Notes under the pieces: model-generated
Seen by the model: the letters and a program-made list of their open reading frames with translations, nothing else
What the model was told of the DNA's origin: nothing
The model's database searches: none
Shown: positions 2,200 to 15,497 of the stretch, in pieces
Numbering within the stretch: position 1 is the stretch's first letter
Layout: every line of letters begins with the position of its first letter
Assembly (NCBI GenBank): GCA_002496845.1
Contig: DALQ01000085.1
Location: forward strand, 1 to 15,497
DNA from: Euryarchaeota archaeon UBA495
GTDB taxonomy: Archaea > Thermoplasmatota > Poseidoniia > Poseidoniales > Poseidoniaceae
Direction: 5' to 3'
DNA length: 15,497 nucleotides
Position numbers and translations under genes: made by a program

Positions 2200-2251
2200 G
2201 GCTGGCAAAGCGTCACAACGCATACGCGTCCCAAAACGGAGGCCATGAGCA

Positions 2252-4582
2252 ATGGAGCGTCGCGCCATGCGCGCGCTCCTGCTCATGGTCGTCCTTTTGG
2301 GATCGCTGCTCAGCACAACAGTCGCAGCAAACGACTCCACAGAGACCTTCACCATCACCGGTGACGCACTGTTGGAAAACGGCCAGCCTGCTGGCACGTC
2401 TTACGTGCGGCTTGACGACCAAGGGTCTGTGTCGACCAACAACGGCGCGTACGTCATTGAAGGCGTGACGCCTGGGAGACACACCCTCCGCACCTACTTC
2501 ATGAACGACGGCCACGTTGCCGTTTACCGTGAAATCATGGTGACGGGCGACATGACCGTGGACTTCATGATCGGTCAAAACGTGGTGACAGCTTCGTTGA
2601 GCAACGCAGACAGCAACGCCGCGAATGCAACCCTCCGGACGCCCAGTACGCCATGGAGTGCGGCAAACGGGTGGGCTGAATTTGGCCCTTACCCACACGA
2701 CACAATGGTTGAAATTCACGCCCAATTCGATGACGGCACGCAAGCATCGCATGCAATTTTGATGGATGGCGGCAAAATAGGCGAGCCTTGGCGAAACCAC
2801 ATCCCCATCTCGGAGGGATCTACCGGAGTCTACGGCTACGTCCATGATCAGCTTGGCGGCCCTGTTCCCAACATCGACGTGGTTTCAGGAAATCACTCGT
2901 CACGCACGGATGCCACCGGCTTCTACACGATGCAGGGGCTAGAAATCAACGTCAGCCACACGTTTGCATACACCCAGCAGGGGCTCGAGGTGGCATCGAA
3001 CAACAGCGCTGTTTTCCACGGGGATTCAGGATGGATGAACATCAGCCTCGAACGAACCCTGACGCTGCCTGGGAATGTGTCCTTCACGACCGTACCTGCA
3101 ATTGTGCCAATGGAACCCTTCAGGGTCGAGTGGACGCAGGCGCCTCATGCCACGCGCTACGTGCTCACCCTCGGCGACGTCCCAATGTACGACGGCCCCT
3201 CAACTGGGTTCACCTTCACGCCTCAAACCGATGGAGAACACCGCTTTGGCCTACAAGCCGTCAACCCAAACGGGTCGACCTCGGCCTATCAGGATCTTTT
3301 GATGGTGGTCTTGCCTGAGCAAGATGAAAACGGATATTGGACCGCGGGCATGAGCTGGACCTATGACCAGACCTACACCCCGGCCGCGCGAGATGGAGTG
3401 CTGCGGCGCACCTACACGTGCTTGGGTTCTGAAACAATCACCGACGCGTTTGGCGAGGAACGTCCAGCCTACGTGGTGAACGTTGAGGATCCGAGGTACA
3501 TGCCCGATGAACGGTCGATGCGTTGGGTCGATCAACAGTCACTGTTGACCATCAGGAGCTATTGGGCCGACGACCCCTCAAGTTCCAACCAATTCACCGA
3601 TGCCTCTTCCGGGTGGGGTTTTACCACCAGTACCGGAGCAAGCACATCCCTAATGGAAGACCCAAGTTCGTTGTGGTTCAATCGAACGACCATCATTGGT
3701 GTCCCAGGGCATCCAAACGGATACACGGACACAAACAGCAGCGTGCTGGTTGAACACAACGTCAGCGTGACCACGCCTGCTGGCACATTCATCACCACCA
3801 AGTACACCATCACCGACCTCAACGACGGCGTCGTGTCATGGGAATTGTACTACAACGCGACCGTGCGAAACCATGTCAAAGTGGTCGATCGACTACCCGG
3901 CACCCACTCGGAAATGGTCGAAAGGGTTCTGGTCAGCTACGATGTACCGACGGAGCCTGTGTTCATCACAGAGTCTGGCCAGATTATGACCAAGGAAACG
4001 ACCGTTCAGTGGGGGGCCTTCCCCGGAGCGACGGAGTACGTACTGCTCCAAAACGGCGTCGAGGTCTACACTGGAAACGCCACAAACGCGACGGTCACAG
4101 ACCTCAATGATGGAAATTACGCGTTCCACCTGCGCGCAATCATGGACGATGGGCGCCAGTTGGACGCCGAAGAATTGGTGCTGGAGGTGGCCTATGAAAG
4201 CCTACCACCAACCCTCGCAAATTCCACGGGCACCGCCACGCGAGGCGATACGGTTGATCTCGCATGGACGCATGAACGCGGTGTCGAATACATGCTCTTG
4301 CATGAAAAGCCCAGTGGGGCATCGGAGACCACAAGCGACCTCGTGGACCTCACATGGTCTGTGGAGGTCAATGAGAACGGGCGACACCGGTTCCGGGTCA
4401 AGGCCATCGAGGCAGACGGCACCACCTCAGACTGGTCAGACTCTGTTGTCGTGCTGGTCGAGGAAGGCGAAGGGGCTTCAAGCCGCAGCATTGGGGAAAA
4501 CAACCCATGGCTGTTGGCAGCATGCGTGCTTGTCTTCGTGGCCATTGGTCTGCAACTTCTTCTCAGGGGGCGACCTGATTGA
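2252..4582 (+). CDS. Secreted, C-terminally membrane-anchored multidomain surface glycoprotein (2 CarboxypepD_reg-like, 3 FN3-like modules, unassigned central domain)
   Basis: 776-aa ORF with GGAGG at 2238-2242, 9 nt upstream. Signal peptide is MERRAMRALLLMVVLLGSLLSTTVAA. Two beta-sandwich-like segments are present (GAYVIEGVTPGRHTL; GYVHDQLGGPVPNIDVVSGNHSSRTDATGFYTMQGL). Three modules share W-x3-P/x-x-AT/V-x-Y-V/M-L-L: RVEWTQAPHATRYVLTL, TVQWGAFPGATEYVLLQ and DLAWTHERGVEYMLLH. The C-terminal TM is NPWLLAACVLVFVAIGLQLLLRGRPD. I counted 15 N-x-S/T sequons. Confidence 0.85.
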   Translation: MERRAMRALLLMVVLLGSLLSTTVAANDSTETFTITGDALLENGQPAGTSYVRLDDQGSVSTNNGAYVIEGVTPGRHTLRTYFMNDGHVAVYREIMVTGDMTVDFMIGQNVVTASLSNADSNAANATLRTPSTPWSAANGWAEFGPYPHDTMVEIHAQFDDGTQASHAILMDGGKIGEPWRNHIPISEGSTGVYGYVHDQLGGPVPNIDVVSGNHSSRTDATGFYTMQGLEINVSHTFAYTQQGLEVASNNSAVFHGDSGWMNISLERTLTLPGNVSFTTVPAIVPMEPFRVEWTQAPHATRYVLTLGDVPMYDGPSTGFTFTPQTDGEHRFGLQAVNPNGSTSAYQDLLMVVLPEQDENGYWTAGMSWTYDQTYTPAARDGVLRRTYTCLGSETITDAFGEERPAYVVNVEDPRYMPDERSMRWVDQQSLLTIRSYWADDPSSSNQFTDASSGWGFTTSTGASTSLMEDPSSLWFNRTTIIGVPGHPNGYTDTNSSVLVEHNVSVTTPAGTFITTKYTITDLNDGVVSWELYYNATVRNHVKVVDRLPGTHSEMVERVLVSYDVPTEPVFITESGQIMTKETTVQWGAFPGATEYVLLQNGVEVYTGNATNATVTDLNDGNYAFHLRAIMDDGRQLDAEELVLEVAYESLPPTLANSTGTATRGDTVDLAWTHERGVEYMLLHEKPSGASETTSDLVDLTWSVEVNENGRHRFRVKAIEADGTTSDWSDSVVVLVEEGEGASSRSIGENNPWLLAACVLVFVAIGLQLLLRGRPD

Positions 4583-5682
4583 GTGGACCTGAACCTCGCA
4601 AGGCATTGGCTGCGATACAAATCGTGGTGCTACTCGTCCTCGGGTACGCGATGCTCAACGTCTTCAGCGACTCCCGAAATGCAGAAGAAGACGGCACAAT
4701 CGTCATCACAGACACGACCGGCGAGGTGCACGCATTCGATGCACCACCGGATCGAATTGTGCTCTCCAATACCTTCGGAGCAACCGCGATGCGGATGCTC
4801 GATGCGGACATGAGCTCCGTGGTTGGAGTGAGCGGAGATTTTGATGACGAGGCCTTGTGGCCCGAATTGGTTGACCGACCGTGGGTCCAGTTTTCCGCTC
4901 ATTCAGAAATCGACTTCGAGGCCTTGCTCGACGTCCGACCCGACGTGTATGTGGTGTTTGCAACCAACGGCATGGTTGATACGGCAGCCATTCGAGAGCG
5001 ATTGGCCCCAATGGGAATCGACGTTGTCGCATTTGATTTCTACAAGTACGACGCGCTGCGGGAAGAATTCAAACAGCTGGCCATCATGCTCGATCGGATG
5101 GACAGTTATGAGGAGTTGATGCAGGAATTCGACGAAATCGAAGCCGACATGGCCGTGGCTCTGGAAGGTCTCGAAGATTCCGAACGGCCTGCAGTGGTGA
5201 TGGAACATCACGCTTCCTTGACCCGTGACCCAGTGGTGTTGACCGGTTCATCCCAATGGGACGACATCATTCGAATCGCAGGAGGAACAAACGTGTTCAG
5301 CGACCTACCTGGTCACACCACACACGTCGACATGGAAGCCATCCTCGATGCCGACCCCGAGGTGATGATGTTTGACGGCATTACGTTTGAGCTCGGTTTC
5401 AACATGGACGACCCGAAGGGCGGGTGCGGCGAACATTTCAACCTCATTCAGAGCCGGCCTGGCTTCGACTCCATGCAGGCCATCGAAGAGGAACGCATGC
5501 TGATTTTTTCGGGCTCCTTTGCCGGCCCAATGATGATCCACGGGCTGCCCTTCATCGCTGAGCAATTCCACCCAGAACGCTTCGATGAAGGGACTGGAGC
5601 TGCCCTGTTGGACAGCTTTTACGCCGACCATTTTGCAGTGGATCGCGACGGCACATTCCTATGCAAGATGACAGGTGAGTAA
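4579..5682 (+). CDS. ABC transporter substrate-binding protein, Peripla_BP_2 (FecB/BtuF/HemT-like) class, N-terminal TM anchor
   Basis: 367-aa ORF. The TTG start at 4579 overlaps the upstream TGA (TTGA), with CAGGGGG 8 nt upstream. The TM anchor is ALAAIQIVVLLVLGYAMLNVF. The layout is typical of iron-siderophore/heme/cobalamin binding proteins (PDRIVLSN, LDVRPDVYVVF, ILDADPEVMMF). It sits immediately upstream of the FecCD permease. Confidence 0.8.
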   Translation: MSGPEPRKALAAIQIVVLLVLGYAMLNVFSDSRNAEEDGTIVITDTTGEVHAFDAPPDRIVLSNTFGATAMRMLDADMSSVVGVSGDFDDEALWPELVDRPWVQFSAHSEIDFEALLDVRPDVYVVFATNGMVDTAAIRERLAPMGIDVVAFDFYKYDALREEFKQLAIMLDRMDSYEELMQEFDEIEADMAVALEGLEDSERPAVVMEHHASLTRDPVVLTGSSQWDDIIRIAGGTNVFSDLPGHTTHVDMEAILDADPEVMMFDGITFELGFNMDDPKGGCGEHFNLIQSRPGFDSMQAIEEERMLIFSGSFAGPMMIHGLPFIAEQFHPERFDEGTGAALLDSFYADHFAVDRDGTFLCKMTGE

Positions 5683-6724
5683 CGTGGAAGATGTGGCCGA
5701 AGCCTATCTTCACGGGCAGCGGCAACGCATGCTCTTTCTTCTGATGGCATCGGTCATGACGGCCGTTGGCGCCATCCTCGCGATGGGGTTTGGGTCATCT
5801 GAAAACCTCTCCATGCGGTCCACGCTTGGGATTCTTTTCGGATTCCAATCGGCTGAAGGGCTCCAAATGGAAATCCTGGTCAATTTGCGGCTACCACGTG
5901 TGCTCATCGCGCTGGTGGGAGGGGCCGCACTTGCGATGGCAGGCACGATGATGCAAGGGGCCCTCGGGAACCCGCTTGTTTCGCCCCTCACCTTGGGCGT
6001 CGCATCGGGTGCTGGCCTTGGGGCCGCTCTTGCCATCGTGCTTGATATCACGATTTTTGGATTGGCGGAATTTGCGATCCTTGGAAACGCATTCATCTTC
6101 GCCATGCTTGTGGTCGCCTTCATCGTCAAGCTCGGCGACATGTCAACCGTCACCAGTGAATCCTACATTTTGGTCGGCATTGCGATCACGTTCATCGCTG
6201 GAGCCATCATCCAGACCATGACATACTTCGCGACCGATGCGGAAATCTCCCAACTCACACACTGGAGTTTCGGCAGTTTGTCGCGACCTAATCTCGCGCA
6301 AGCGATCTTAATCGGTTTGACTATCCTTTCCTTCATGCCATTTGGCATGGTGGCAGCGTGGGATCTGAACACCCTCGCGGTGGGTGGCGACGATTTTGCC
6401 GCGTCGACTGGTGTCGACCCTCGGAAAACCCGCCGGTCCATCCTCATCCTTTCTGCAACCATGACGGCTGTGGTCATTGCCTTCACGGGCATCATTGGAT
6501 TCCTTGGATTGGTTGCTCCGCACATCTCACGGATTTTGGTCGGCAACGACTACCGTGTTTTGATCCCCACCTCGGCGGTCATGGGCGCAGCGGTCCTCCT
6601 CGTGGCAGACACCATCGGCCGGACCCTGTTCGCACCAATCGTACTCCCAGTTGGCATAATGCTCTCCATCTTGGGAGGACCATTTTTCCTCTACCTGTTG
6701 ATGCTTCGGAGGAAAAGCCTGTGA
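5675..6724 (+). CDS. FecCD/BtuC-family ABC transporter permease
   Basis: 349-aa polytopic ORF with hallmark blocks LRLPRVLIALVGGAALAMAGTMMQGALGNPLVSPLTLGVASGAGLGAA and GIIGFLGLVAPHISRILVGNDYRVLIP. GTG 5675 overlaps the upstream TAA. An alternative GTG at 5684 lies 5 nt after AGGTGAG, so the start is uncertain by 3 codons. Confidence 0.9.
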   Translation: MSNVEDVAEAYLHGQRQRMLFLLMASVMTAVGAILAMGFGSSENLSMRSTLGILFGFQSAEGLQMEILVNLRLPRVLIALVGGAALAMAGTMMQGALGNPLVSPLTLGVASGAGLGAALAIVLDITIFGLAEFAILGNAFIFAMLVVAFIVKLGDMSTVTSESYILVGIAITFIAGAIIQTMTYFATDAEISQLTHWSFGSLSRPNLAQAILIGLTILSFMPFGMVAAWDLNTLAVGGDDFAASTGVDPRKTRRSILILSATMTAVVIAFTGIIGFLGLVAPHISRILVGNDYRVLIPTSAVMGAAVLLVADTIGRTLFAPIVLPVGIMLSILGGPFFLYLLMLRRKSL

Positions 6725-7548
6725 CCGATATGCTCCTTCAAGCGACGAACCTGCGCTTTGCGTGGGGCGATCGTCCGGTGTTGGAAGGGGTTGACCTCGA
6801 GGTCCACAGCGGCGAAGTCGTCGCCTTGCTGGGTCGAAACGGTGCGGGTAAAACCACACTTTTGCGGATGCTAAACGGCCTGCTCACCCCGCAAGGAGGC
6901 GAAGTGCTCGTCGGCGGAGATGCCTTGGGAATGATGGGGCTTACGGAACGTGCAAAACGCACAGCTTACGTTCCACAAAGCATCACAAGCGCCTTCCCGA
7001 TGCGGGTGATTGACGTCGTCTTGTTGGGTCGCCGGCCACACGTGACGTGGCGATTGAGCGATTACGATGTCCAGGTCGCCACGGATACCCTCAAGATGCT
7101 TGGGCTCAATGAATTCGCCTTCCGCCGGTTCACGGAACTCTCCGGCGGTGAACGTCAGCAGGTGATCTTAGCAAAGGCCATGGCGCAGGAGGCTGGCGTG
7201 CTGCTGCTCGATGAACCCACAAGCGACCTCGATCTCAACAACCAAATTGGGGTGATGAAGCGTATTCGCAGCGTGGTCGATACCGATGAAAAGCGTGGAG
7301 CAGTCATCGTGATGCACGACCTGAACATCGCTGCGGGTTTTGCCAATCGTGTTGTGCTTCTCCATGAAGGAAAGGTTGAGGCCGTAGGCTCACCGCGCGA
7401 TGTGCTCACGAAAGAAAATTTGGCCAAGGTTTTCATGGTCAACTGCACGGTTGATGAGGCACCGACGGATGGCCGACTGAGGATTCACGTGCACGACGAA
7501 GTAAAACCGTCGCTGCAAAATGAAAAGATCGAGGATGATGCACAATGA
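6721..7548 (+). CDS. ABC transporter ATP-binding protein (FecE/FepC/HmuV-like)
   Basis: Walker A is GRNGAGKTT, signature LSGGERQQ, Walker B VLLLDEPTSDLD and H-loop VMHDLN. The GTG at 6721 overlaps the permease TGA (GTGA) and has GGAGGA 7 nt upstream; ATG 6730 is an alternative. The track ORF 6358-7548 only adds an in-frame extension across the permease gene. Confidence 0.9.
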   Translation: MTDMLLQATNLRFAWGDRPVLEGVDLEVHSGEVVALLGRNGAGKTTLLRMLNGLLTPQGGEVLVGGDALGMMGLTERAKRTAYVPQSITSAFPMRVIDVVLLGRRPHVTWRLSDYDVQVATDTLKMLGLNEFAFRRFTELSGGERQQVILAKAMAQEAGVLLLDEPTSDLDLNNQIGVMKRIRSVVDTDEKRGAVIVMHDLNIAAGFANRVVLLHEGKVEAVGSPRDVLTKENLAKVFMVNCTVDEAPTDGRLRIHVHDEVKPSLQNEKIEDDAQ

Positions 7549-8405
7549 GCCAAGAGACCGATGACCAAAACACCGATGCCACCGCTGAGGCGGACGCCCA
7601 TCGCGAAGCCCATGACGGGGAAGATCCCTCAGCCAACGTTGCAATTTGGTTGCATGAGACGCGCGCAGCAACCCTCTCAACGTTGGCCGTAAAACCAGGC
7701 ATCGAAGGATTCCCGATTGGATCGATTGTCCCGTTTGCGCTTGATGGAAGCGGCCGTCCGTTCATTCTGGTGGCGAGCATCGCTGCGCACACACGGAACA
7801 TCGACGCAGACCCACGGGCTTCCCTGTTCATTTCGGACCCAGAGGCCAAGGGAGACCCCCAATCAAGCTGGCGTGCATCGTTGCTTGGAGAAATGCGCCA
7901 CGTTGCCGTGGAAGGAGAAGAGGTTGATCTGCCCGAAGAGCGGATTGACCGCGTCACGCCAGAAGAACACGCGCATTTGTTGGCGCGCTACGTGGAACGG
8001 GTGCCTGCGGCCGAATCGTACGTGAAGGTCCACAACTTCAGTTTCTACCGGATGAGCACCATCGAACGCATCCGCTACATCGCGGGCTTTGGGCGCATTT
8101 GTTGGATTCCGGGGCGCAAATACATGGAAGCCGTGGCCGATACCGGACTTGCAGAAGCCGCCCCTGAGGCCATTGAACACATGAACGACGACCATGTTGA
8201 TGCCATGGTGACCATCGTCAAAGGCCATCGCGGCATCGATGTCGAGTCTGTGAACATGGTCGACCTTGATCCAAACGGCATGATGCTGGAAACGCATGAG
8301 CCACATCACCTGATGTACGTCTCTTTCGAGAACCGAATCACGGCAGAGAGCATGCGAACCGAGATCATCAACAGCGTGGTCGCTGCAAGGAAAGCCATTG
8401 GTTGA
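7545..8405 (+). CDS. HugZ/HutZ-like heme-utilisation protein (PNPOx-like split barrel + DUF2470)
   Basis: 286-aa ORF. ATG 7545 overlaps the ATPase TGA (ATGA), with GAGGA 9 nt upstream. The block GFPIGSIVPFALDGSGRPFILVASIAAHTRNIDADPRASL is typical of the HugZ-like FMN-binding split-barrel family. The C-terminal part (AIEHMNDDHVDAMVTIV...) is DUF2470-like. Confidence 0.8.
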   Translation: MSQETDDQNTDATAEADAHREAHDGEDPSANVAIWLHETRAATLSTLAVKPGIEGFPIGSIVPFALDGSGRPFILVASIAAHTRNIDADPRASLFISDPEAKGDPQSSWRASLLGEMRHVAVEGEEVDLPEERIDRVTPEEHAHLLARYVERVPAAESYVKVHNFSFYRMSTIERIRYIAGFGRICWIPGRKYMEAVADTGLAEAAPEAIEHMNDDHVDAMVTIVKGHRGIDVESVNMVDLDPNGMMLETHEPHHLMYVSFENRITAESMRTEIINSVVAARKAIG

Positions 8406-8430: not shown

Positions 8431-9645
8431 TCAGTCAAAGTCGAGGTCGATTTTCTTCGGGCCATCGATGCTGAGAATCTTGACGTCGATGGGCTTGCCC
8501 ACGGCATAGAACATCTCGATGTGGTCCATGCTCATCCCGTCCATCTTTGAGATGTGAACCATGCCGGTGACCTCACGCTCGACCAACGCAACAAGAAGGC
8601 CGTAAAAGGGCCCTCCGTCCTTGCGGTACAGGTGTTTGACGACCGTGCCGGTGTAGGTTCCTCCCACTTCGAAGGCTGCAAGCGGATCGGCGGCTTCCGT
8701 GGCGTCGCCGTCGGATTGGGGCGTCACGTCCTCCCAACGAAACTTCGCTTCGTTGCCGAAGAGCACCTTTCGGACATGCTCGATGGGGTACGTGCCCTTG
8801 CCGTCGATGCCTGACTCGTCCCAGGGCTGGGTGTGCCGAACGGTCAGGCCTGGCGTCATGTCCTCCGTGACCTTCGAGCCGTCCCGCCGGTGGAAGGTGA
8901 CGGTAAGGCGTGGGCCGCGAAACAAGGTGGAGAACAACCCCCCTTCCACAGCGATTTCAACGGCCGAGTGGTCCGCACGGGTCCACCCTTCTGGAAAATC
9001 ATCGTCAATGAAGTCCCCCGTATGTCGCTGGCCGCCGTCAAAGGTGAGCACGTCCCAGGTACCGAACCGTCGAAGCATGGCGTCTTGGCGAGCGATTTCC
9101 TCCTCGCTCACGGGCTCCCGCGTGGCCAAGAGAGCCTCGATCTTTGCAGGAAGGTCCGCCACCGTCGACACCTCTGGGTGCGCCAACACCTCCTCGCTGA
9201 GGTTCCCCTTCGGATTGGCCAGCACCACGATGGGGAGGACTTCGAGCATCTCAATGCGGTCGATGGACAAGGAACATCGTTGCAGCATCCGCACCTTGGC
9301 CCGCAGTTTTTCGATGACCGGCTTGGGCGGCTCGCCCTTGTCCAACAAGCGTTGTTGCACAAGGTCATTGTCGCGCAAATGGACGTCGCCACCCCAATTC
9401 TTCACTTCGAGCAGAATCACGGCCCGGTCGGTGATGGCGATGACGTCGACTTCACCTGAGCCACGTCGCCGATCGGGGTCCGGAATGCGAATGGCCAGAT
9501 GCACATGCCGCGTGCTTTTGACGCGCTTCGCGGCCGCGCCCACGGCGTGCTCCGCTTTCCAAGAGCGGACCTCGCGCTGGGGCATGTGCTCGCGACGAGC
9601 AGACCGGGTGGAACGCCACCAGCCGATGCGCGCAAAGGGGCCCAT
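8431..9645 (-). CDS. NERD (nuclease-related) domain protein with C-terminal S1-like RNA-binding domain
   Basis: 404-aa ORF. The NERD-type core is GEVDVIAITDRAVILLEVKNWGG. The C-terminus GTYTGTVVKHL...YGLLVALVEREVTGMVHISKM...VGKPIDVKILSIDGPKKIDLDF matches the S1 OB-fold pattern. The 324-aa plus-strand ORF opposite is S/R-rich. The start could also be M21 (nt 9585). Confidence 0.8.
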   Translation of the reverse strand: MGPFARIGWWRSTRSARREHMPQREVRSWKAEHAVGAAAKRVKSTRHVHLAIRIPDPDRRRGSGEVDVIAITDRAVILLEVKNWGGDVHLRDNDLVQQRLLDKGEPPKPVIEKLRAKVRMLQRCSLSIDRIEMLEVLPIVVLANPKGNLSEEVLAHPEVSTVADLPAKIEALLATREPVSEEEIARQDAMLRRFGTWDVLTFDGGQRHTGDFIDDDFPEGWTRADHSAVEIAVEGGLFSTLFRGPRLTVTFHRRDGSKVTEDMTPGLTVRHTQPWDESGIDGKGTYPIEHVRKVLFGNEAKFRWEDVTPQSDGDATEAADPLAAFEVGGTYTGTVVKHLYRKDGGPFYGLLVALVEREVTGMVHISKMDGMSMDHIEMFYAVGKPIDVKILSIDGPKKIDLDFD

Positions 9646-9713: not shown

Positions 9714-10541
9714 TCATCGGTGACGACGTTGTGAAATCGCCTCGTCGCCCGGCAGGTAAAGGTCCGAAGCCAAGCCGACGGAGGCGAAAATGCGAAGCAG
9801 CAGGTAGGACAAGTCAACCTGCCCTTTCAGCAGGCCGTGGCGAGCGGATCGGGGGAAGGCGTGGTGGCCTGCGTGCCAGCCTTCCCCAAGCGAAACAAGC
9901 GCCACGAACCGGTTGTTTCGGGCCTCTCCCGCTCCGTCGAAGTCCTGCTTGCCCCACAGGTGGCCTACAGAGTTGACCGCGTCACCGGCGTTGTAGTAGA
10001 GGACGCTGGCCACCCAAGCGATGATCACGCCGTCCCACGCCATCAGGTGGTACGCCAAGAGAAAAGGCAACATCTGGAACGACGAGCCAATCAGGAAGCC
10101 GAAGCGGGTCGAAAGGAAGCGAAGAAAGCGGTCATCGAGCACGTCCTTGGCCAAAGCGTCATGTCCGCCTGGGCTCATCGGACGAAGGAACATGTCAACG
10201 ATGTATCGAAGCGGCCCTCCAAGCGCATACACGAGGCACAACCCGCGGTTCCTGATGCCAAGATACCATCCACAGTGGGCGTACCAAAACCCGTCGTTAA
10301 GCGGGCTGTGAGGGTCGTTGGGTCCGTCCGAGTCGGTATGGTGGAGACGGTGATTTCCGACCCACTCCGCCGGTGGTCCAGCAGGAAGGGCGGCCAACAC
10401 CAAGGCATAGAGCAGCGGCTTGCGCAAGTTGGCCGAACGGTGGGTCAACACGCGATGGTAGGCCACAGTGATGCCAAATCCCACTGCAAAATACCACGTG
10501 AGCAGGAGCACCCCCATCCACTGCTGTGCTGAGAGTTCCAT
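9714..10541 (-). CDS. Membrane fatty-acid (acyl-CoA/acyl-lipid) Delta9-type desaturase, OLE1/DesC family
   Basis: 275-aa ORF with three His boxes at canonical spacing: AYHRVLTHRS, NHRLHHTDSDGPNDPHSP and GEGWHAGHHAFPRSARHG. GGAGA lies 7 nt upstream, and the start is 2 nt after the upstream stop. Confidence 0.9.
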   Translation of the reverse strand: MELSAQQWMGVLLLTWYFAVGFGITVAYHRVLTHRSANLRKPLLYALVLAALPAGPPAEWVGNHRLHHTDSDGPNDPHSPLNDGFWYAHCGWYLGIRNRGLCLVYALGGPLRYIVDMFLRPMSPGGHDALAKDVLDDRFLRFLSTRFGFLIGSSFQMLPFLLAYHLMAWDGVIIAWVASVLYYNAGDAVNSVGHLWGKQDFDGAGEARNNRFVALVSLGEGWHAGHHAFPRSARHGLLKGQVDLSYLLLRIFASVGLASDLYLPGDEAISQRRHR

Positions 10542-10543
10542 GT

Positions 10544-11440
10544 TCAGTTCTCCAAGCCGAGCTCAGCACGCATACGCTCGAGGTGTCCATGCGTGTGCTC
10601 CACGAAGAAACCGTGCATCAGGAACCGGTAACTGAGACCGGTAGGGCCGACCAAAATCATCGGGAATCGGTTGTAGGCGATGTCTGCAAAGTGGCTTGCA
10701 CCAACGATGTCGTCAATGAGGAGGCCAATGGAATGATCGAATTGGAAGGAGTTGATGGCCGCCTCGTATTCTGGAGCGGTCAACCAGAAGCAAAAGGTGG
10801 TCTTGAACAGTTCATGAGCGGTTTCAAAATCGAGGAATTGCGTCCACTTTTTCCGGTCCACGCCGTAGTCGAGGCGCACCGGCTTCCAATTCTCCCAAGA
10901 CAATTCGTCCTTGGGGACAGGCCAGCGGGAACGATCTGGCTCGGTGAGGTCCCGCATCGTCATCAGCACGCCCTGGTCGTGATGAACGAAGGTCTGAACC
11001 ATGAGGTCCCTGATCATCTTCGGATGGATGAGGACCGGGTCGACTTCGTCTTGACCGGCGTTGTCAATGACGAAATTCAGCAGGTTGGATTCCGCCCAGA
11101 AATGACGCAAGATGAGGACGTTGGCTTCAGGTCGGACGAACCATTTCATGAAGAAGCAAATTTGCCATTGAAGGAAGCCATGGGCCCGCCACTGAATGGG
11201 TGAAAGTCGCTTGAGGTAGTAGGTGATGTGCAGGGTGATGGTCAGGATGATTTTCAACGTCGGGAGCACGATACGGCGAAGCGGATTTTGAAGGTCCTTG
11301 GTCCAGTATTTCTTCGCGATAGGATCCAGCGGCATGGCCTCATCGCCCGCCATGGCATCAAGGATGCTCGCTGGCATTTTGCCATGGTTTCTGGCCATGG
11401 CTTTGCGCCGCTTCCGCTCCATCCGAGCGGTGCTACTCAT
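10544..11440 (-). CDS. Hypothetical protein, no family recognised
   Basis: Open frame with C/G third-position bias and a W/F/H-rich sequence (FLQWQICFFMKWFVRPEANVLILRHFWAESNLLNF...). ATG 11440 lies 7 nt after GGAGGAG; GTG 11443 in the track is one codon upstream. It overlaps the upstream gene's stop by 8 nt. Confidence 0.7.
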   Translation of the reverse strand: MSSTARMERKRRKAMARNHGKMPASILDAMAGDEAMPLDPIAKKYWTKDLQNPLRRIVLPTLKIILTITLHITYYLKRLSPIQWRAHGFLQWQICFFMKWFVRPEANVLILRHFWAESNLLNFVIDNAGQDEVDPVLIHPKMIRDLMVQTFVHHDQGVLMTMRDLTEPDRSRWPVPKDELSWENWKPVRLDYGVDRKKWTQFLDFETAHELFKTTFCFWLTAPEYEAAINSFQFDHSIGLLIDDIVGASHFADIAYNRFPMILVGPTGLSYRFLMHGFFVEHTHGHLERMRAELGLEN

Positions 11441-12176
11441 CACCCATCTCCTCCAACTGCAACCGATACAAACGGGCGACCACCTTGGCGGTCATTTCGA
11501 TGCGTTCGACCACCAGCGTGTCGGTGCACACCTCATCGAGCATGGTGTAGAAACGCTGCATATGATCGTCGTCGTTGGCGCCGTGATAAGTCATGAACCG
11601 CGTGATGCCCTCACGCTCACAGAGCTCTTCCATCCGCGTGGCCCAACCGATGGCCATACGCTCACCGAGGCCTTCGATGATCCACATCGCGCCAAGCATG
11701 TCCACAGGATTCGGTTGGCTTGCGCGTTGCATCATAAAGGCGTGGAAGGCTTCACTGCCCACGTTTTTACCACGGCTGAGGATGGTCTCAATCTCCCCTC
11801 CTGCGTTGACGTAGTCCTGTTCCAGCATGGTGTAGTCCCGGTGTTCGTCCACCGCATGACGGAGGATGAGCGAGCGCATCTCGCTGTGATCACGGTCCAT
11901 CGAGGAGGCGGCCCGAGCAATCCACCGAGAGCCTTCCACCACCTGCTGACGCAGGTTCACAAGGAGACGACGGTGGTCTGCCAGCGTGTACGTCCCCAAG
12001 TCGAGACGGCGAAGAATCGGCACGGTCACAAGGTCGCGCTCGAAGCCAATCCACACACGCAACAAGCGCCGCAAGGCGTCTTGTGCATGTTCCTTCAACT
12101 CAGGAACGTCGTTCGCGCCAATGGCTTCAGCAGCTTGCTGAACCGGGATTCCGTCAATTGTAATGTTACCGTCCAT
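11433..12176 (-). CDS. Heme-oxygenase-like di-iron oxidase/oxygenase (HDO; iron-containing redox enzyme family, CADD/UndA/PqqC-like fold)
   Basis: 247-aa all-helical-looking ORF. H198-G-A-N-D202-D-D-H205 (nt 11562-11585) gives HxxxDxxH. Upstream acidic/His candidates are E81, E99, H107, E111-H112 and E168/E172. This ligand spacing resembles CADD-type HDOs as I remember them. The gene overlaps the KAS III gene by 11 nt. Confidence 0.65.
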   Translation of the reverse strand: MDGNITIDGIPVQQAAEAIGANDVPELKEHAQDALRRLLRVWIGFERDLVTVPILRRLDLGTYTLADHRRLLVNLRQQVVEGSRWIARAASSMDRDHSEMRSLILRHAVDEHRDYTMLEQDYVNAGGEIETILSRGKNVGSEAFHAFMMQRASQPNPVDMLGAMWIIEGLGERMAIGWATRMEELCEREGITRFMTYHGANDDDHMQRFYTMLDEVCTDTLVVERIEMTAKVVARLYRLQLEEMGDE

Positions 12177-13308
12177 TGTTATCTACCACCGTCAGATGCA
12201 TGTATGTCGTGTTGAAGCGACCGCTCTCAGGAACAAAGCACAGGATGCGTTCTCCCACCTGAGGGTTCTGCGTTCTCACGAATTCGTCGAGCATGATAAA
12301 CAGCGAGGCGGCGCCCGTGTTGCCTCGTGAGTACAGGTTCGTCCACCATTTTTCTTCTGGAATGCCCACGCCTGCGGCATCGAGCATGTCAAGGATCTTT
12401 GGCCTGAAATGATGCGAAGAATAGTGGCAGAGGAAGTGGTCCACCTCAGAAGGCACGTTGAGGCCTTCTTGCACAAGCCGCACGTAGCCGTCAACGCCCA
12501 GCCGAACAATGTGGTCGAGGAGGCGGACCTCTTGGCGGAGCAACAGGGCCCCTTCTCGTTCCGCATCTGCATAGGTGTCGTAGTCCTGCCAAGTGCGTTC
12601 CTCGTCGGCCTTGCCGCTGGAGCCCACGCTCATGCAGGTTGGCAAAGCGTGCGCGTGAGACCAACCCTTCATCCAATCGATGCGGAAGGACAAGCCCTTG
12701 GGGCGAGGTGATGTTTCCAAGAGCAAGGCTCCAGCGCCGTCGGACAGCATCCAACGAAGGAATTCTGTGTTGAAATCCACGGTCTTCTTGGCGAAAGTGG
12801 ATTCTGTCGCGGCCTCGTAGCGTTGACGCTTGAGCAAACGCGATGGCATCTCTGTGGCGACGACCAGCGCAGCGTCGTGTTCATCGCACCGCAAAGCAAG
12901 CCATGCGCCTTTGAGCGCCATCATCGAAGAGGAACAAATGGACTGAGCAGTGAGAATTTCCACCTCAGCCATGCCGAGCCCAGCCTGAACAAAGGAAGCC
13001 AAGCCCGGGACGGGATGATCGCCCTGAGTGGATGCGACGGCCAGCATACCCACCTGGTGGATGGGTCGGAAAGCGCGGTCCATGCATTCCTGAGCGGCCT
13101 GCACCGCCATTTCCGTGTTTGAAACGGTGGTCCTTTGGTTGGCATCAATCCCGTAGTGGCGCGTTTGGATACCGTTGGCTTTCTGGATTTGACCACGGAG
13201 ACCTGAGGGTTGTCCATTCACAGCCCCCAGCACGGTCTCAACCTGATCGTTGGTGATGGCAGGCCCTGGCAGGTGCCAGCCTGTGGAAGTGATGTAGACC
13301 GTGTTCAT
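12166..13308 (-). CDS. FabH-like 3-oxoacyl synthase III (KAS III) family condensing enzyme
   Basis: The Cys-His-Asn triad context is QSICSSSMMAL, FLCHYSSHH and YSRGNTGAASL. ATG 13308 overlaps the upstream TGA (ATGA) and has GGAGGA 7 nt upstream. That favours it over the track start at 13323, whose ATG lies inside that SD. Confidence 0.85.
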   Translation of the reverse strand: MNTVYITSTGWHLPGPAITNDQVETVLGAVNGQPSGLRGQIQKANGIQTRHYGIDANQRTTVSNTEMAVQAAQECMDRAFRPIHQVGMLAVASTQGDHPVPGLASFVQAGLGMAEVEILTAQSICSSSMMALKGAWLALRCDEHDAALVVATEMPSRLLKRQRYEAATESTFAKKTVDFNTEFLRWMLSDGAGALLLETSPRPKGLSFRIDWMKGWSHAHALPTCMSVGSSGKADEERTWQDYDTYADAEREGALLLRQEVRLLDHIVRLGVDGYVRLVQEGLNVPSEVDHFLCHYSSHHFRPKILDMLDAAGVGIPEEKWWTNLYSRGNTGAASLFIMLDEFVRTQNPQVGERILCFVPESGRFNTTYMHLTVVDNNGR

Positions 13309-13907
13309 GCTGAATTCCTCCATGGGAGAGAGGATACGCCGTTGTCACGCTCCCACTTCCAACAACGGTGGATTTCCAACAGGTAGGGCATGACGCCAAA
13401 CACCAGCATGATCGCCATGTAACTGGCCGCGAAGTTGCCGTTCAATCCGAGGGATTCTTTGCGCCACTCAAGCCCCATGCTCCCTGCCCAATTGAGGGTG
13501 ATGAAATCGATGAACGTCTGCCAGCGCCGAACCACGATGAGCAAGAGGATGAAGAACGGAAGGGTCGCGAGGTAACTGTGCGCATGCACTTCCCAGATGC
13601 TGATTTCACGCAAATCTTGAGCGTATTTCACGTCGTAGTGTGCCACGAGTTCGTGCGCGATGAAGGCGAGGATGCACAAAATTAGCACCAGTACGTTGAC
13701 TTCGAACAGGAGCCCCAAGAGGATGGGGATGCCCACCTGCACGCCCATGATGGCGTGGACCAGAGCTTCTCGAAGACCTGCGGTGGATTCGATGTTGGTG
13801 GCTCGGTGGCAGAACCAATCAACGCCCCCAGCCACAACCCAAAGCGGCAGCAAAACGTAGAGCAGAATGTTCAGGACAAGTGTCGACGCGTCCAACGTCG
13901 GGTCCAT
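13305..13907 (-). CDS. His-rich polytopic membrane protein, unknown family (about 5 TM)
   Basis: Hydrophobic segments are LVLNILLYVLLPLWVVAGG, HAIMGVQVGIPILLGLLF, VLVLILCILAFIA, LATLPFFILLLIVV and YMAIMLVFGVMPYLL. Loop-edge His clusters are DWFCHR, AHELVAHYD, EVHAH and EIHRC. I prefer ATG 13907 over track start 13955 for two reasons: the extra 16 codons include rare TTA TTA, and a TTATTAT box lies 27 nt upstream of 13907. Confidence 0.75.
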   Translation of the reverse strand: MDPTLDASTLVLNILLYVLLPLWVVAGGVDWFCHRATNIESTAGLREALVHAIMGVQVGIPILLGLLFEVNVLVLILCILAFIAHELVAHYDVKYAQDLREISIWEVHAHSYLATLPFFILLLIVVRRWQTFIDFITLNWAGSMGLEWRKESLGLNGNFAASYMAIMLVFGVMPYLLEIHRCWKWERDNGVSSLPWRNSA

Positions 13908-13930
13908 GTAAAAGGCCACATCTTGAGGAC

Positions 13931-13937
13931 ATAATAA
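13931..13937 (-). promoter_or_regulatory. TATA box (TTATTAT on minus strand) for the membrane-protein/KAS III operon
   Basis: AT-rich heptamer centred 27 nt upstream of ATG 13907, with no SD. The geometry matches the other first-gene starts in the window. Confidence 0.45.
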
Positions 13938-13954
13938 GACAACGCCGAAGTGCA

Positions 13955-14407
13955 TTATCCATCATGCAGTCCTACTAAACCTGCAAGAGGTTCTGCTTCG
14001 GCATGCCACCCGGAGAGATGAACGGTTGGCGCCGGCAATGCTCCCTCGCCGTGTGATGCAACGCTCAGCATGAACGCATGGAGGCTTGCAAGCATGCTGG
14101 GCGAAGGCATGCCCTCAACGTGCTCGTTGGGCGCGAGGTACCACAGAACCTCGGGCACCTTGCCGCCGAACACGATGGGGGCTCCGATGACGATTGGATC
14201 TCGCAGCTCGATGTACGAATCCTGCTGGCTCATGAGCCAAATCTGCAGGTCCTCCCCCAGCGCGACCCGATCCAGAAGGCTGTCCACGGTCTTCGCGAGT
14301 TCGACCTTCTGAGCCTTGGGGCGCAGGTGATGCAAGTGTTTCATGTCCCCCAGCCCGAGGGCAGTCATGACGTCGTCGAGGGTCCATCCAAGCATCATTG
14401 AAGCCAT
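13955..14407 (-). CDS. Hypothetical protein (150 aa)
   Basis: This is the inner part of the 240-aa track ORF, starting at M91 (MASMMLGWTLDDVMTALGLG...). A CTTATA box lies 24-29 nt upstream. The longer version would cross an AT-rich promoter region and overlap the fasciclin gene start. I recognise no family. Confidence 0.6.
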   Translation of the reverse strand: MASMMLGWTLDDVMTALGLGDMKHLHHLRPKAQKVELAKTVDSLLDRVALGEDLQIWLMSQQDSYIELRDPIVIGAPIVFGGKVPEVLWYLAPNEHVEGMPSPSMLASLHAFMLSVASHGEGALPAPTVHLSGWHAEAEPLAGLVGLHDG

Positions 14408-14430
14408 GAACAGACGGTGGTATGAGGTGC

Positions 14431-14436
14431 TATAAG
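14431..14436 (-). promoter_or_regulatory. TATA box (CTTATA on minus strand) for the 150-aa gene
   Basis: Centred about 26 nt upstream of ATG 14407. It is bracketed by the inverted repeat ATGAGGT (14422-14428) / ACCTCAT (14449-14455). Confidence 0.45.
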
Positions 14437-14536
14437 GACAGGAATTATACCTCATTTGATTGTAAAACCGGGCTACATCGCACCTGTTCCTCGTCGTCGG
14501 AATTGGTTTCCTGCATCGTTGTGTGAGAAACACCTG

Positions 14537-14543
14537 ATTATAA
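14537..14543 (+). promoter_or_regulatory. TATA box (ATTATAA) for the fasciclin gene
   Basis: Centred 28 nt upstream of ATG 14568 with no SD. It is bracketed by the inverted repeat TGTGAG (14522-14527) / CTCACA (14544-14549). Confidence 0.5.
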
Positions 14544-14567
14544 CTCACATTGCGTGCAAAATGGGAC

Positions 14568-15497
14568 ATGAAGAAATCTGCCGCGTATGTCCTCATCGTT
14601 CTCCTGATGGCATCGACCCTGCCACTGCAAGCCAGCGCTGACGCCAGCCAAGACATCCCCTCAAACGCGGTGGCCACGGGCGTTCACGATTCTCTTGTGG
14701 CCGCCTTGACCCATGCGGACTTGGTGACCACCTTGCAAGGCACGGGACCGTTCACCGTGTTCGCTCCGACGGACACGGCCTTTGCTGAGGCGGGCATCGA
14801 TTTGAGCACCTTCGACACGCCCGAAGAAAACGCAACCCTCACCGCCATCCTGCTCCACCACGTGGTGGCCGGTTCGGTGCCCTCAAGCGCGCTCTCCGAC
14901 GGCATGTTCGCCACGACGGTGAACGGAGATCGGGTTCAGTTTGGCGTCGACGCCAACGGCGTGACCGTCAGCAACGCCAACGTCACCACCCCCGACGTCA
15001 TCGCCTCCAACGGCATCATCCACTTCATCGACAAGGTCATGCTTCCGCCGGTCGACATCCCCGCCACCGCTCAAACCACGGGCATCCACAACAGCCTCGT
15101 GGCCGCTGTGGTCCAGGCAGAACTTTTGCCCACGCTGCAGGGGTCCGGACCGTTCACGGTGTTCGCACCCACGGACCAAGCGTTCACCGACGCTGGCATT
15201 GACTTGGCCGATTTTGCCACACCTGAAGGAAAGGCCACGCTCTCCGACATCCTGCTCTACCACGTGGTCGGTGCCGATGTGCCTGCTGCTAACGTGACGG
15301 AGTGCATGACCGCGGACGCCGTCAACGGCCAGCCGCTTTCGTTCACCGTGAACGGTGGCGTGATGGTCAACGACGCGAACGTGGTCCTCACCGACGTCAT
15401 CTCCAGCAACGGGTTGATCCACGTCATCGACAAGGTGCTGATGCCCACGGACACCCCCAAAGACATCCCGCGCACGGCGCAATGCACCACGGTTCAC
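14568..15497 (+). CDS. Secreted tandem fasciclin (FAS1) domain protein (3' end beyond window)
   Basis: Absent from the ORF track because no stop lies in the window. Hand translation from ATG 14568 stays open for 310 codons to the window edge. It begins MKKSAAYVLIVLLMASTLPLQASA (signal peptide). Two FAS1 units follow, each with GPFTVFAPTD.AF...LL.HVV...SNG(I/L)IH.IDKV(M/L).P. Confidence 0.9.
   Translation, partial: MKKSAAYVLIVLLMASTLPLQASADASQDIPSNAVATGVHDSLVAALTHADLVTTLQGTGPFTVFAPTDTAFAEAGIDLSTFDTPEENATLTAILLHHVVAGSVPSSALSDGMFATTVNGDRVQFGVDANGVTVSNANVTTPDVIASNGIIHFIDKVMLPPVDIPATAQTTGIHNSLVAAVVQAELLPTLQGSGPFTVFAPTDQAFTDAGIDLADFATPEGKATLSDILLYHVVGADVPAANVTECMTADAVNGQPLSFTVNGGVMVNDANVVLTDVISSNGLIHVIDKVLMPTDTPKDIPRTAQCTTVH

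Follow-up and report, generated by a model that had tools for sequence, protein, structure and literature searches.

A conserved anchored surface protein and a type II ABC importer are co-inherited at an iron-centred locus of Marine Group II archaea

We analyzed a 15,497-nt stretch of contig DALQ01000085.1 (hereafter, the window) from the Poseidoniales (Marine Group II) archaeon UBA495, focusing on a gene for a large anchored surface protein and the ATP-binding cassette (ABC) importer genes that follow it. Five plus-strand genes lie in tandem. They encode a 776-amino-acid (aa) surface protein with a signal peptide, seven beta modules and a C-terminal transmembrane anchor (2252–4582), a class III substrate-binding protein of the Peripla_BP_2 family with an N-terminal membrane-anchor helix and a TTG start (4579–5682), a FecCD/BtuC-type permease (5675–6724), an ABC ATPase (6721–7548) and a HOZ-type protein in which a split barrel precedes a DRI/DUF2470 domain (7545–8405). 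Assignments drew on translation, Pfam, a structural model and glycosylation sequons for the surface protein, on Pfam and PDB/profile matches for the binding protein, on Pfam and NCBIfam for permease and ATPase and on Pfam, PDB relatives and the published description of HOZ-like proteins (PMC11602992) for the last gene.

All five open reading frames (ORFs) and the four coupled junctions listed in a first-pass annotation, made from the sequence alone, were recovered at the same positions by inspecting the ORFs and translations of the window. Surface and binding-protein genes overlap in TTGA (4579–4582), the permease GTG at 5675 overlaps the end of the binding-protein gene with its TAA at 5680–5682, and GTGA (6721–6724) and ATGA (7545–7548) join permease to ATPase and ATPase to HOZ gene, respectively. 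Alternative in-frame starts exist for the permease (GTG, 5684) and the ATPase (ATG, 6730). Support for the unusual TTG start of the binding protein comes from a congeneric contig, L010, with an ATG at the homologous overlapping position, and from most relatives, which also start close to the upstream stop: in most species of the related loci, the binding protein begins a few nucleotides from the surface-gene stop, often in an NTGA overlap. Although start/stop overlaps of this kind are commonplace within operons, it is unusual for them to persist at this one junction across an order. The genes form one tightly packed unit. Its extent had been given as 2252–8405, which we revise, as it most likely begins at 934 with the gene for a FEA1-related lipoprotein (934–2199). 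This gene, a divergent transferrin-like binding-protein gene beyond it and the archaeal origin of the DNA had been overlooked, and together they frame the locus as an iron island.

For information about conservation, the window proteins were compared by tblastn to the loci of 79 genomes carrying the surface gene, with one genome considered per species. Nearly all are labeled Poseidoniales/Poseidoniaceae or bear older names of this group (Euryarchaeota, ‘Methanobacteriota archaeon’). The archaeal gene order was also found under bacterial labels of metagenome-assembled genomes (Verrucomicrobiales ARS100, Rhodobiaceae) in loci L016, L036 and L082 (NZEQ01 contigs) and L075; one bin holding three separate copies of the surface locus suggests mis-binning or mixed strains. 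The binding-protein gene directly followed the surface gene in all 70 informative loci, and permease (68/68) and ATPase (67/67) genes were present wherever they could be scored. Synteny of surface gene and transporter in relatives had been proposed as a test of their association, and this adjacency across 79 species genomes bears it out. The HOZ gene lay downstream on the same strand in 58 of 60 cases and nearby on the opposite strand in the other two. A flavodoxin gene separates ATPase and HOZ genes in 32 of 60 species (for example, L003 9767–10222, L004 13279–13734 and L006 5417–5875); it is absent from the window, where the two genes overlap. A FEA1-like gene immediately preceded the surface gene in 36 of 55 loci and lay within 4 kb in seven more. 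Other genes found in the loci were those for a transferrin-like binding protein, accompanied by BPD_transp_1 and ABC_tran genes (30/79), for a GSDH protein (24) and for ferrochelatase (6). The ferrochelatase gene of L004 and L005 (5386–6402, minus strand) is located just upstream of the Fea1 gene, a notable position beside a candidate heme importer in a group with reported gaps in heme biosynthesis.

Linkage extends beyond close homologues. Searching 1.84 billion representative proteins with a profile of the central domain of the surface protein returned only 36 at E ≤ 1e-3. These remote relatives include one 1103-aa form, several of ~790 aa and three of 440–470 aa, the last keeping only the central domain, two immunoglobulin (Ig)/FN3-like modules and the anchor. 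Among four remote relatives checked, three lie directly before a called Peripla_BP_2 gene, and the cut-off downstream gene of the fourth matches the window binding protein by tblastn. Because the short relatives retain both this linkage and these parts, central domain and anchor are the core unit traveling with the importer.

A comparison of the window in 300-nt steps to two congeneric contigs gave independent evidence tying the surface protein to the transporter. Against L010, the block of surface-protein, binding-protein, permease and ATPase genes (about 2250–7550) showed identities of 0.57–0.78 between flanks at 0.76–0.93, while against L007 the same four-gene block reached 0.96–0.99 between flanks at 0.84–0.97. 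Taken together, these opposite contrasts indicate that the four genes behave as one exchangeable allele, bounded by breakpoints between the Fea1 and surface genes and at the junction of ATPase and HOZ genes. A Fea1 fragment in L008 is 98% identical to the window version, while the surface protein is only 72% identical. The Fea1 and HOZ genes, located outside the cassette, look like generic partners. The suggestion that the surface protein is part of the importer is, thus, upheld by conserved adjacency, by linkage in reduced remote relatives and by the four-gene exchange block, which show that the type II ABC importer of this iron-centred locus has it as a dedicated fourth component, inherited along with the rest. 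We also considered a general S-layer protein and discarded this reading, because linkage to the transporter is strict.

For the surface protein, we found 82 full-length homologues of 766–846 aa and 31–98% identity, many from Tara Oceans and none with an informative name; the closest contig, PBMM01000010.1, is at 97% protein identity. An AlphaFold2 model of the full-length protein computed with 42 homologues (predicted local distance difference test (pLDDT) 80.6) suggests the following architecture. A signal-like helix (residues 2–20, also apparent from the translation) is followed by three beta-sandwich modules and a first FN3-like module (residues 31–354, 2342–3313), assigned from the modeled strand pattern and Pfam. 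The sandwiches are modeled at residues about 33–97, 109–170 and 183–254, the first and third being CarboxypepD_reg-like, and the FN3-like module at 283–353. Behind the central domain (368–564 in this model), two more FN3-like modules (modeled at 576–646 and 660–737) would form a membrane-proximal stalk (residues 571–740, 3962–4471), supported by the model, weak fibronectin and Y_Y_Y matches and generic matches to Ig/FN3 arrays. A transmembrane helix (residues 752–771, 4505–4564), evident from translation and model, ends in a basic tail, RGRPD, and a hydrophobic C-terminal segment with basic tail was present in all 42 aligned homologues. The three FN3-like modules proposed earlier are, thus, retained, while the two CarboxypepD_reg-like sandwiches give way to three beta-sandwich modules before the first FN3-like one. 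For CarboxypepD_reg (PF13620) itself, the window protein scored 30.7 bits against a gathering threshold of 32.3, with relatives reaching 54–73 bits at the equivalent position. The protein is probably N-glycosylated, as it contains 15 N-x-S/T sequons compared to 7.1 ± 2.4 expected from shuffling, four of them invariant in the 42 homologues.

Database comparisons yielded little else for the full-length protein. The first-pass annotation had recognized no NEAT, HasA or HmuY motif, and Pfam agreed, with no match to these or to HtaA at E ≤ 0.01. NCBIfam gave no match, a sequence comparison to the PDB produced only a fibronectin match at chance level, and the full-length model retrieved only generic Ig/FN3 arrays from the PDB.

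Conservation, assessed as a column profile, is highest in the central domain (residues 355–570, 3314–3961), which we delimited using this profile, the model, Foldseek and hhalign. Modeled in isolation, it forms 12 beta strands (pLDDT 81.9, predicted template modeling score 0.80). An invariant loop, FNRT..IGVPGHPNGY.D (residues 476–493, 3677–3730), includes H487 and an invariant sequon at N477 and has low pLDDT at 480–490. A second conserved loop, D-R-L-P-G-x-H (residues 546–552, 3887–3907), seen in alignment and model, is nearly invariant as DRLPGSH, with D546, L548, G550 and H552 strictly and P549 almost strictly conserved. Both loops are probably flexible given their low model confidence. 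If the domain is a simple up-and-down sheet, these loops with their invariant His, Asp, Tyr and Trp residues would lie at one end together with the 522–525 and 440–447 loops.

The first-pass annotation had left the region at residues ~350–570 unassigned and named a hydrolase or adhesin match as a result that would speak against ligand capture; neither Pfam nor Foldseek pointed to such a family. The best Foldseek matches in the PDB were the lipoproteins BDI_3050 and BF2203 (‘YmcC-like fold’, E 1.5e-3 to 7e-3), followed by DUF1849, DUF1329, LolA/LolA3, RseB/MucB, ependymin-related proteins and YmcC. TM-scores were mostly about 0.2–0.4 and reached 0.49 for YmcC. The top fold matches, 3FZX and 4FVS, are presumably DUF3108 members. 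Those nearest folds (YmcC-like, DUF1849, LolA, RseB and ependymin) are open barrels that carry hydrophobic ligands or are themselves lipoproteins. HtaA, HasA and HmuY were not among the top 50 fold matches. We also examined a chymotrypsin-like protease, considering the 12 strands and conserved His, Asp and Ser residues, and rejected it: the sole protease match, Deg9, had a Foldseek probability of 0.08–0.11 compared to about 1.0 for the YmcC-like fold, and no GDSG-type motif is present.

At the sequence level, the window protein had no Pfam match to DUF3108 (PF11306/PF21347) at gathering score, 23 central-domain sequences matched no Pfam family except for a single DUF3108 match at E 0.018, and a central-domain profile found no match among PDB sequences. 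Remote relatives showed weak DUF3108 or DUF3108_like matches, with intermediates P0107, P0111 and P0116 linking the two groups. Using hhalign, alignment to DUF3108-like repeats was obtained with 96.4% probability (E 1.2e-9) over the C-terminal 67 columns only, the C-terminal third of the domain, where both share the motif TPAGTF...WY...V..WVK. We, therefore, describe the domain as DUF3108/YmcC-like and probably remotely related to that family, without filing it as a member, because no Pfam threshold was passed and only the C-terminal third aligns. Like the DUF3108/YmcC-like lipoproteins, it is predicted to be an all-beta open barrel (TM 0.42–0.49 with YmcC); unlike them, it forms part of a long, membrane-anchored surface protein of an archaeon.

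The first-pass annotation had read these genes as a Fec-type ABC importer and a split barrel plus DUF2470 protein, and Pfam agreed, matching Peripla_BP_2, FecCD, ABC_tran and the two domains of the last gene. E values were 4e-22 for the binding protein, 1.1e-75 for the permease and 6.2e-31 for the ATPase, and the complete trio of a type II (FecCD/BtuCD-type) importer is encoded together. Substrate class was less apparent, as every NCBIfam equivalog cut-off for heme, siderophore and B12 components was missed. The permease matched BtuC best, far below the equivalog cut-off. For the ATPase, the corrinoid model PRK09536 (241.7 bits, cut-off 537) and the heme model PRK13548 (241.2 bits, cut-off 261) nearly tied, and the heme model alone came near its own cut-off. 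Compared to BtuCD/FecBCDE-type importers, the system is alike in its strongly scoring trio and distinct in its missed substrate-class cut-offs, in the tethering of the binding protein by an N-terminal helix and in the obligatory fourth partner gene for a surface-exposed protein. The binding protein is unusually conserved (63% mean column identity), with E209-H210-H211, E110/D112/E114, H331 and M318 invariant and H108 and H249 nearly so. This signature appears atypical for siderophore-binding class III proteins; its Glu, His, Asp and Met clusters would suit heme ligation and, equally, a metal-chelate site. For the closest solved binding proteins, 9HRJ and 9HT5, a literature search found no paper giving a ligand. 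In one clade (L001 14605–15870, L002 5906–7171), the ATPase is called at 421 aa compared to 275 in the window and, therefore, carries an extra N-terminal region of ~150 residues; ABC_tran matches are listed in two separate places in these proteins.

The last gene had been placed in the HugZ/HutZ family of heme-degrading enzymes. Its membership in a heme-binding split-barrel family holds, with Pfam matches to CREG_beta-barrel (E 7.5e-20; CREG_beta-barrel/PNPOx, residues 29–194) and DUF2470 (E 5.7e-9; residues 208–267), while domain order and scores place it in the HOZ type rather than in HugZ/HutZ proper. HOZ-like proteins are defined by a split barrel followed by a DRI domain (Grosjean et al., PMC11602992); in HugZ the order is reversed, with DRI preceding the split barrel. 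The protein failed the HugZ/HutZ models TIGR04109 (47.9 versus 240 bits, DRI part only) and TIGR04110 (27.4 versus 225 bits). Its closest solved relatives are PA4388 (2ARZ), the heme-binding MSMEG_6519 (5BNC), Arabidopsis HOZ1 (AT3G03890; AtHOZ1, 6M09) and poplar PtHOZ1B (9BL1), with E values of 1.9e-26 to 2e-15 and HutZ marginal. H82 in SIAAHTRN aligns with SLAVHTKD, which holds the His contacting a heme propionate (AtHOZ1 H135/HugZ H136), and the DRI pair H212/H217 in HMNDDH aligns with HMNKDH/HMNRDH (HMNxDH). As each of the three is at least 90% conserved in 69 homologues, the protein is, judged by alignment, a HOZ-family member keeping the conserved histidines of the family. It differs from described members in its archaeal host, an acidic N-terminal extension of ~30 residues and heme binding that is predicted from sequence. 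Prokaryotic HOZ-like genes commonly reside beside FecCD, transferrin and BPD genes (PMC11602992), a neighborhood that the window locus matches.

Upstream of the surface gene, the product of 934–2199 (421 aa) matched Pfam Fea1 (E 6.7e-27) and passed the NCBIfam model NF038033, ‘FEA1-related lipoprotein’ (301.3 bits, cut-off 250). Its N terminus contains a lipobox, LLASLAGC (LAGC). Algal relatives of the FEA1/ISIP2a (phytotransferrin) family bind ferric iron at the cell surface (PMC7676907). The window protein belongs with this family by both models and departs from it as a prokaryotic lipoprotein; its linkage to the surface gene, adjoining in 36 of 55 loci and outside the cassette, is less strict. 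Beyond it, the 5′ part of a minus-strand gene (1–794), identified by frame translation and Pfam, encodes a transferrin-like/Phosphonate-bd binding protein with an LSGC lipobox (Phosphonate-bd E 1.5e-18, Transferrin E 2.3e-8) and runs off the window. In relatives it is accompanied by BPD_transp_1, ABC_tran and GSDH-family genes, making up a second, Fbp/Fut-like iron importer beside the first. A plus-strand ORF at 96–737 was rejected as an antisense shadow of this gene.

The 139-bp gap between the divergent genes (795–933) was delimited from the sequence and its conservation in three congeners. It carries an element resembling a B-recognition element (BRE) and TATA box, ACGAAAcATTATAT, ~25 nt before the Fea1 ATG. 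Given this spacing, the Fea1 mRNA is probably leaderless, a promoter reading that follows the archaeal consensus. Such BRE/TATA-like elements before the Fea1 start are conserved in congeners. Furthermore, three congeners share the repeated TTTTTAGG...CGAAA blocks of ~880–905, and the gap holds TTTAGGAATTCCGAAA/TTTCGGACATCCTTAA, an imperfect inverted repeat, at 818–858. In a search for a shared operator, the inverted repeat occurred as an exact pattern in none of 89 loci, and the promoter blocks of the congeners did not recur as exact patterns in more distant loci. The repeats may represent an operator or just BRE/TATA elements, with the latter mostly explaining the blocks conserved in congeners.

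Considering these data, the surface protein is probably the outer capture arm of an uptake system, as it is always directly upstream of the importer and swaps between populations together with it. Its putative role as a receptor, well motivated, rests on context and analogy. We tentatively favor, at slightly less than even confidence, an iron-acquisition unit in which the beta barrel would capture an iron chelate, most likely heme, for the importer. Heme is the leading candidate because of the HOZ protein, the flavodoxin and the gaps in heme biosynthesis reported for MG-IIb and MG-III (Kim et al., 10.1101/2021.01.11.426183); an ATPase score of 241 bits, close to the 261-bit cut-off of the heme ABC ATPase model, points the same way. 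As cargo we would give heme a chance just short of even, another iron complex a smaller though still sizable one and a non-iron cofactor little. In the mechanism we envisage, a stalk of beta-sandwich and FN3 modules would hold the DUF3108-like barrel off the membrane, reaching, by our own estimate, up to roughly 25 nm if six sandwich modules of ~4 nm each were extended. The barrel would capture a scarce hydrophobic iron chelate, most likely heme, at or beyond the cell envelope and pass it to the membrane-tethered binding protein, which would dock on permease and ATPase for import. Once in the cytoplasm, the heme might be taken over by the HOZ protein for iron release or chaperoning, and the adjacent flavodoxin, found in about half of the relatives, could supply electrons. 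The FEA1-like lipoprotein and the neighboring transferrin-like system would handle inorganic ferric iron in parallel. A bolder version, which we consider possible rather than likely, would be a first archaeal heme-capture relay: the DUF3108-like barrel, carried by a glycosylated stalk, would be a hemophore anchored to the cell that feeds the tethered binding protein and type II importer, to supply heme, iron or both, and the four-gene cassette would be swapped to change ligand specificity or to escape surface-directed pressure, for example, from viruses.

The closest working analogues are the surface relays for heme uptake of Gram-positive bacteria, HtaA–HmuTUV of Corynebacterium, Shr/Shp–HtsABC of Streptococcus and Isd of Staphylococcus. 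As in HtaA–HmuTUV, a surface-protein gene directly precedes those for a class III binding protein, FecCD permease and ATPase, and the window protein shares a C-terminal membrane anchor with HtaA. Absence of an outer membrane and a heme-degrading or heme-binding enzyme associated with the locus are further common features. The parts differ, as the window protein lacks the CR domain of HtaA, a NEAT domain and a sortase signal, has a DUF3108-like beta barrel as its candidate binding module and belongs to an archaeal host, and as the binding protein, with predicted ligand binding, falls outside the known heme-binding clades. By analogy, the relay logic would, thus, be that of the Gram-positive systems with an unrelated receptor domain.

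Several observations weigh against heme capture by this barrel. The surface protein contains no known heme-receptor domain; the DUF3108 family that its central domain resembles is without known function, and the fold similarity is weak (best E 1.5e-3, TM 0.37–0.42). The short relatives P0108 and P0111 lack both invariant histidine loops, which, therefore, cannot serve as ligand site throughout the family. Heme, corrinoid and siderophore importers are not distinguished by the permease and ATPase scores. The binding-protein profile was closest to unnamed structures, 4MO9, YiuA and MolA, with IsdE at 6e-10 and BtuF at about 1e-4, and it did not match the heme-binding HmuT, ShuT and PhuT, so heme is only the leading candidate. 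Lastly, HOZ-family members may be sensors, not oxygenases (PMC11602992).

These points give room to a non-heme iron cargo carried by the same architecture, such as a siderophore (possibly amphiphilic), a ferric citrate-like species or small-ligand iron from the FEA1-like protein, with HOZ and flavodoxin in a separate or downstream role in iron release or heme homeostasis. YiuA, among the nearest profile matches, is annotated ‘iron/siderophore’ and stands with other non-heme class III proteins, and a site for a metal or metal chelate would likewise fit the invariant clusters of Glu/His/His, Glu/Asp and Met. The HOZ gene lies outside the exchangeable cassette, its homologues also neighbor transferrin/BPD systems (PMC11602992 and related loci) and a FEA1-like gene is immediately upstream. 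However, HOZ is kept downstream in 58 of 60 species and overlaps the ATPase gene in the window, the ATPase is near the heme cut-off and no siderophore-reductase family (FhuF, SIP) was found among the genes examined in the window or related loci; we regard this reading as possible but not probable. Cobalamin or another non-iron cofactor, with the surface protein as a capture protein analogous to BtuG, seems very unlikely to us. The BtuC match of the permease, the equal corrinoid and heme scores of the ATPase and weak BtuF matches of the binding protein hint at it, but these permease and ATPase scores are far below equivalog cut-offs and the BtuF similarity is only about 1e-4. Moreover, all conserved neighbors (FEA1-like, HOZ, flavodoxin, transferrin-like binding protein and ferrochelatase) are related to iron or heme, and Rfam detected no cobalamin riboswitch in the window, which is weak evidence in an archaeon.

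Alternatively, the surface protein might bind no ligand and serve as a structural partner that positions, stabilizes or spaces the importer and tethered binding protein in the envelope or S-layer, or controls access to them. Generic beta-sandwich/FN3 folds in six of seven modules, the non-universal histidine loops and a co-inheritance that fits any tight protein–protein partnership are compatible with such a role. Yet the best-conserved part is the one domain that is not stalk, with invariant polar residues in flexible loops; it is also the element kept in minimal relatives, and its nearest folds are ligand carriers. A purely structural function is, thus, rather unlikely in our judgment. An unrelated adhesin or envelope gene merely adjoining the transporter, as the adhesin-like overall architecture and lack of a recognisable ligand-binding domain might suggest, is hardly credible and close to refuted: adjacency is complete (70/70) across an order, remote relatives keep the linkage, and gene and transporter diverge together, in a single cassette.

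Marine Group II archaea, still without a cultured member, rank among the most abundant heterotrophs in surface ocean waters. Our literature searches found nothing on iron or heme acquisition in this group and no prior description of the surface-protein/importer system. While the importer type is already known, new here is an undescribed putative receptor family in an abundant, uncultured archaeal order. As a conserved, lineage-specific surface component, the protein offers an expressible target for testing which form of iron is harvested. The locus could also guide culture attempts, for example, by heme supplementation given the heme gaps of MG-IIb and MG-III, and its genes could serve as metatranscriptomic markers for the iron status of Marine Group II. 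Cassette-like exchange suggests population-level selection on uptake specificity or surface identity. If heme capture by the barrel is correct, it would provide a first function for a DUF3108-like domain, imply that archaea independently arrived at the surface-relay logic of Gram-positive heme uptake with unrelated parts and serve Marine Group II clades apparently unable to make heme.

Elsewhere in the window, an Rfam search found no riboswitch or other RNA family. Convergent on the end of the operon, with only 25 nt between the stop codons, a minus-strand gene (8431–9645) encodes a 404-aa protein with a NERD nuclease-related domain and a C-terminal S1 RNA-binding domain. It is followed by a run of minus-strand genes (9714–14677) for a DesA-like fatty-acid desaturase, a DUF6999 protein, a protein with a weak Haem_oxygenas_2 match (heme-oxygenase-like di-iron), a StlD/DarB-family ketosynthase (360 bits, cut-off 450) and two unassigned ORFs. 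By gene content, this run resembles an archaeal cluster for dialkylresorcinol-type lipids or secondary metabolites, and it is conserved in L010.

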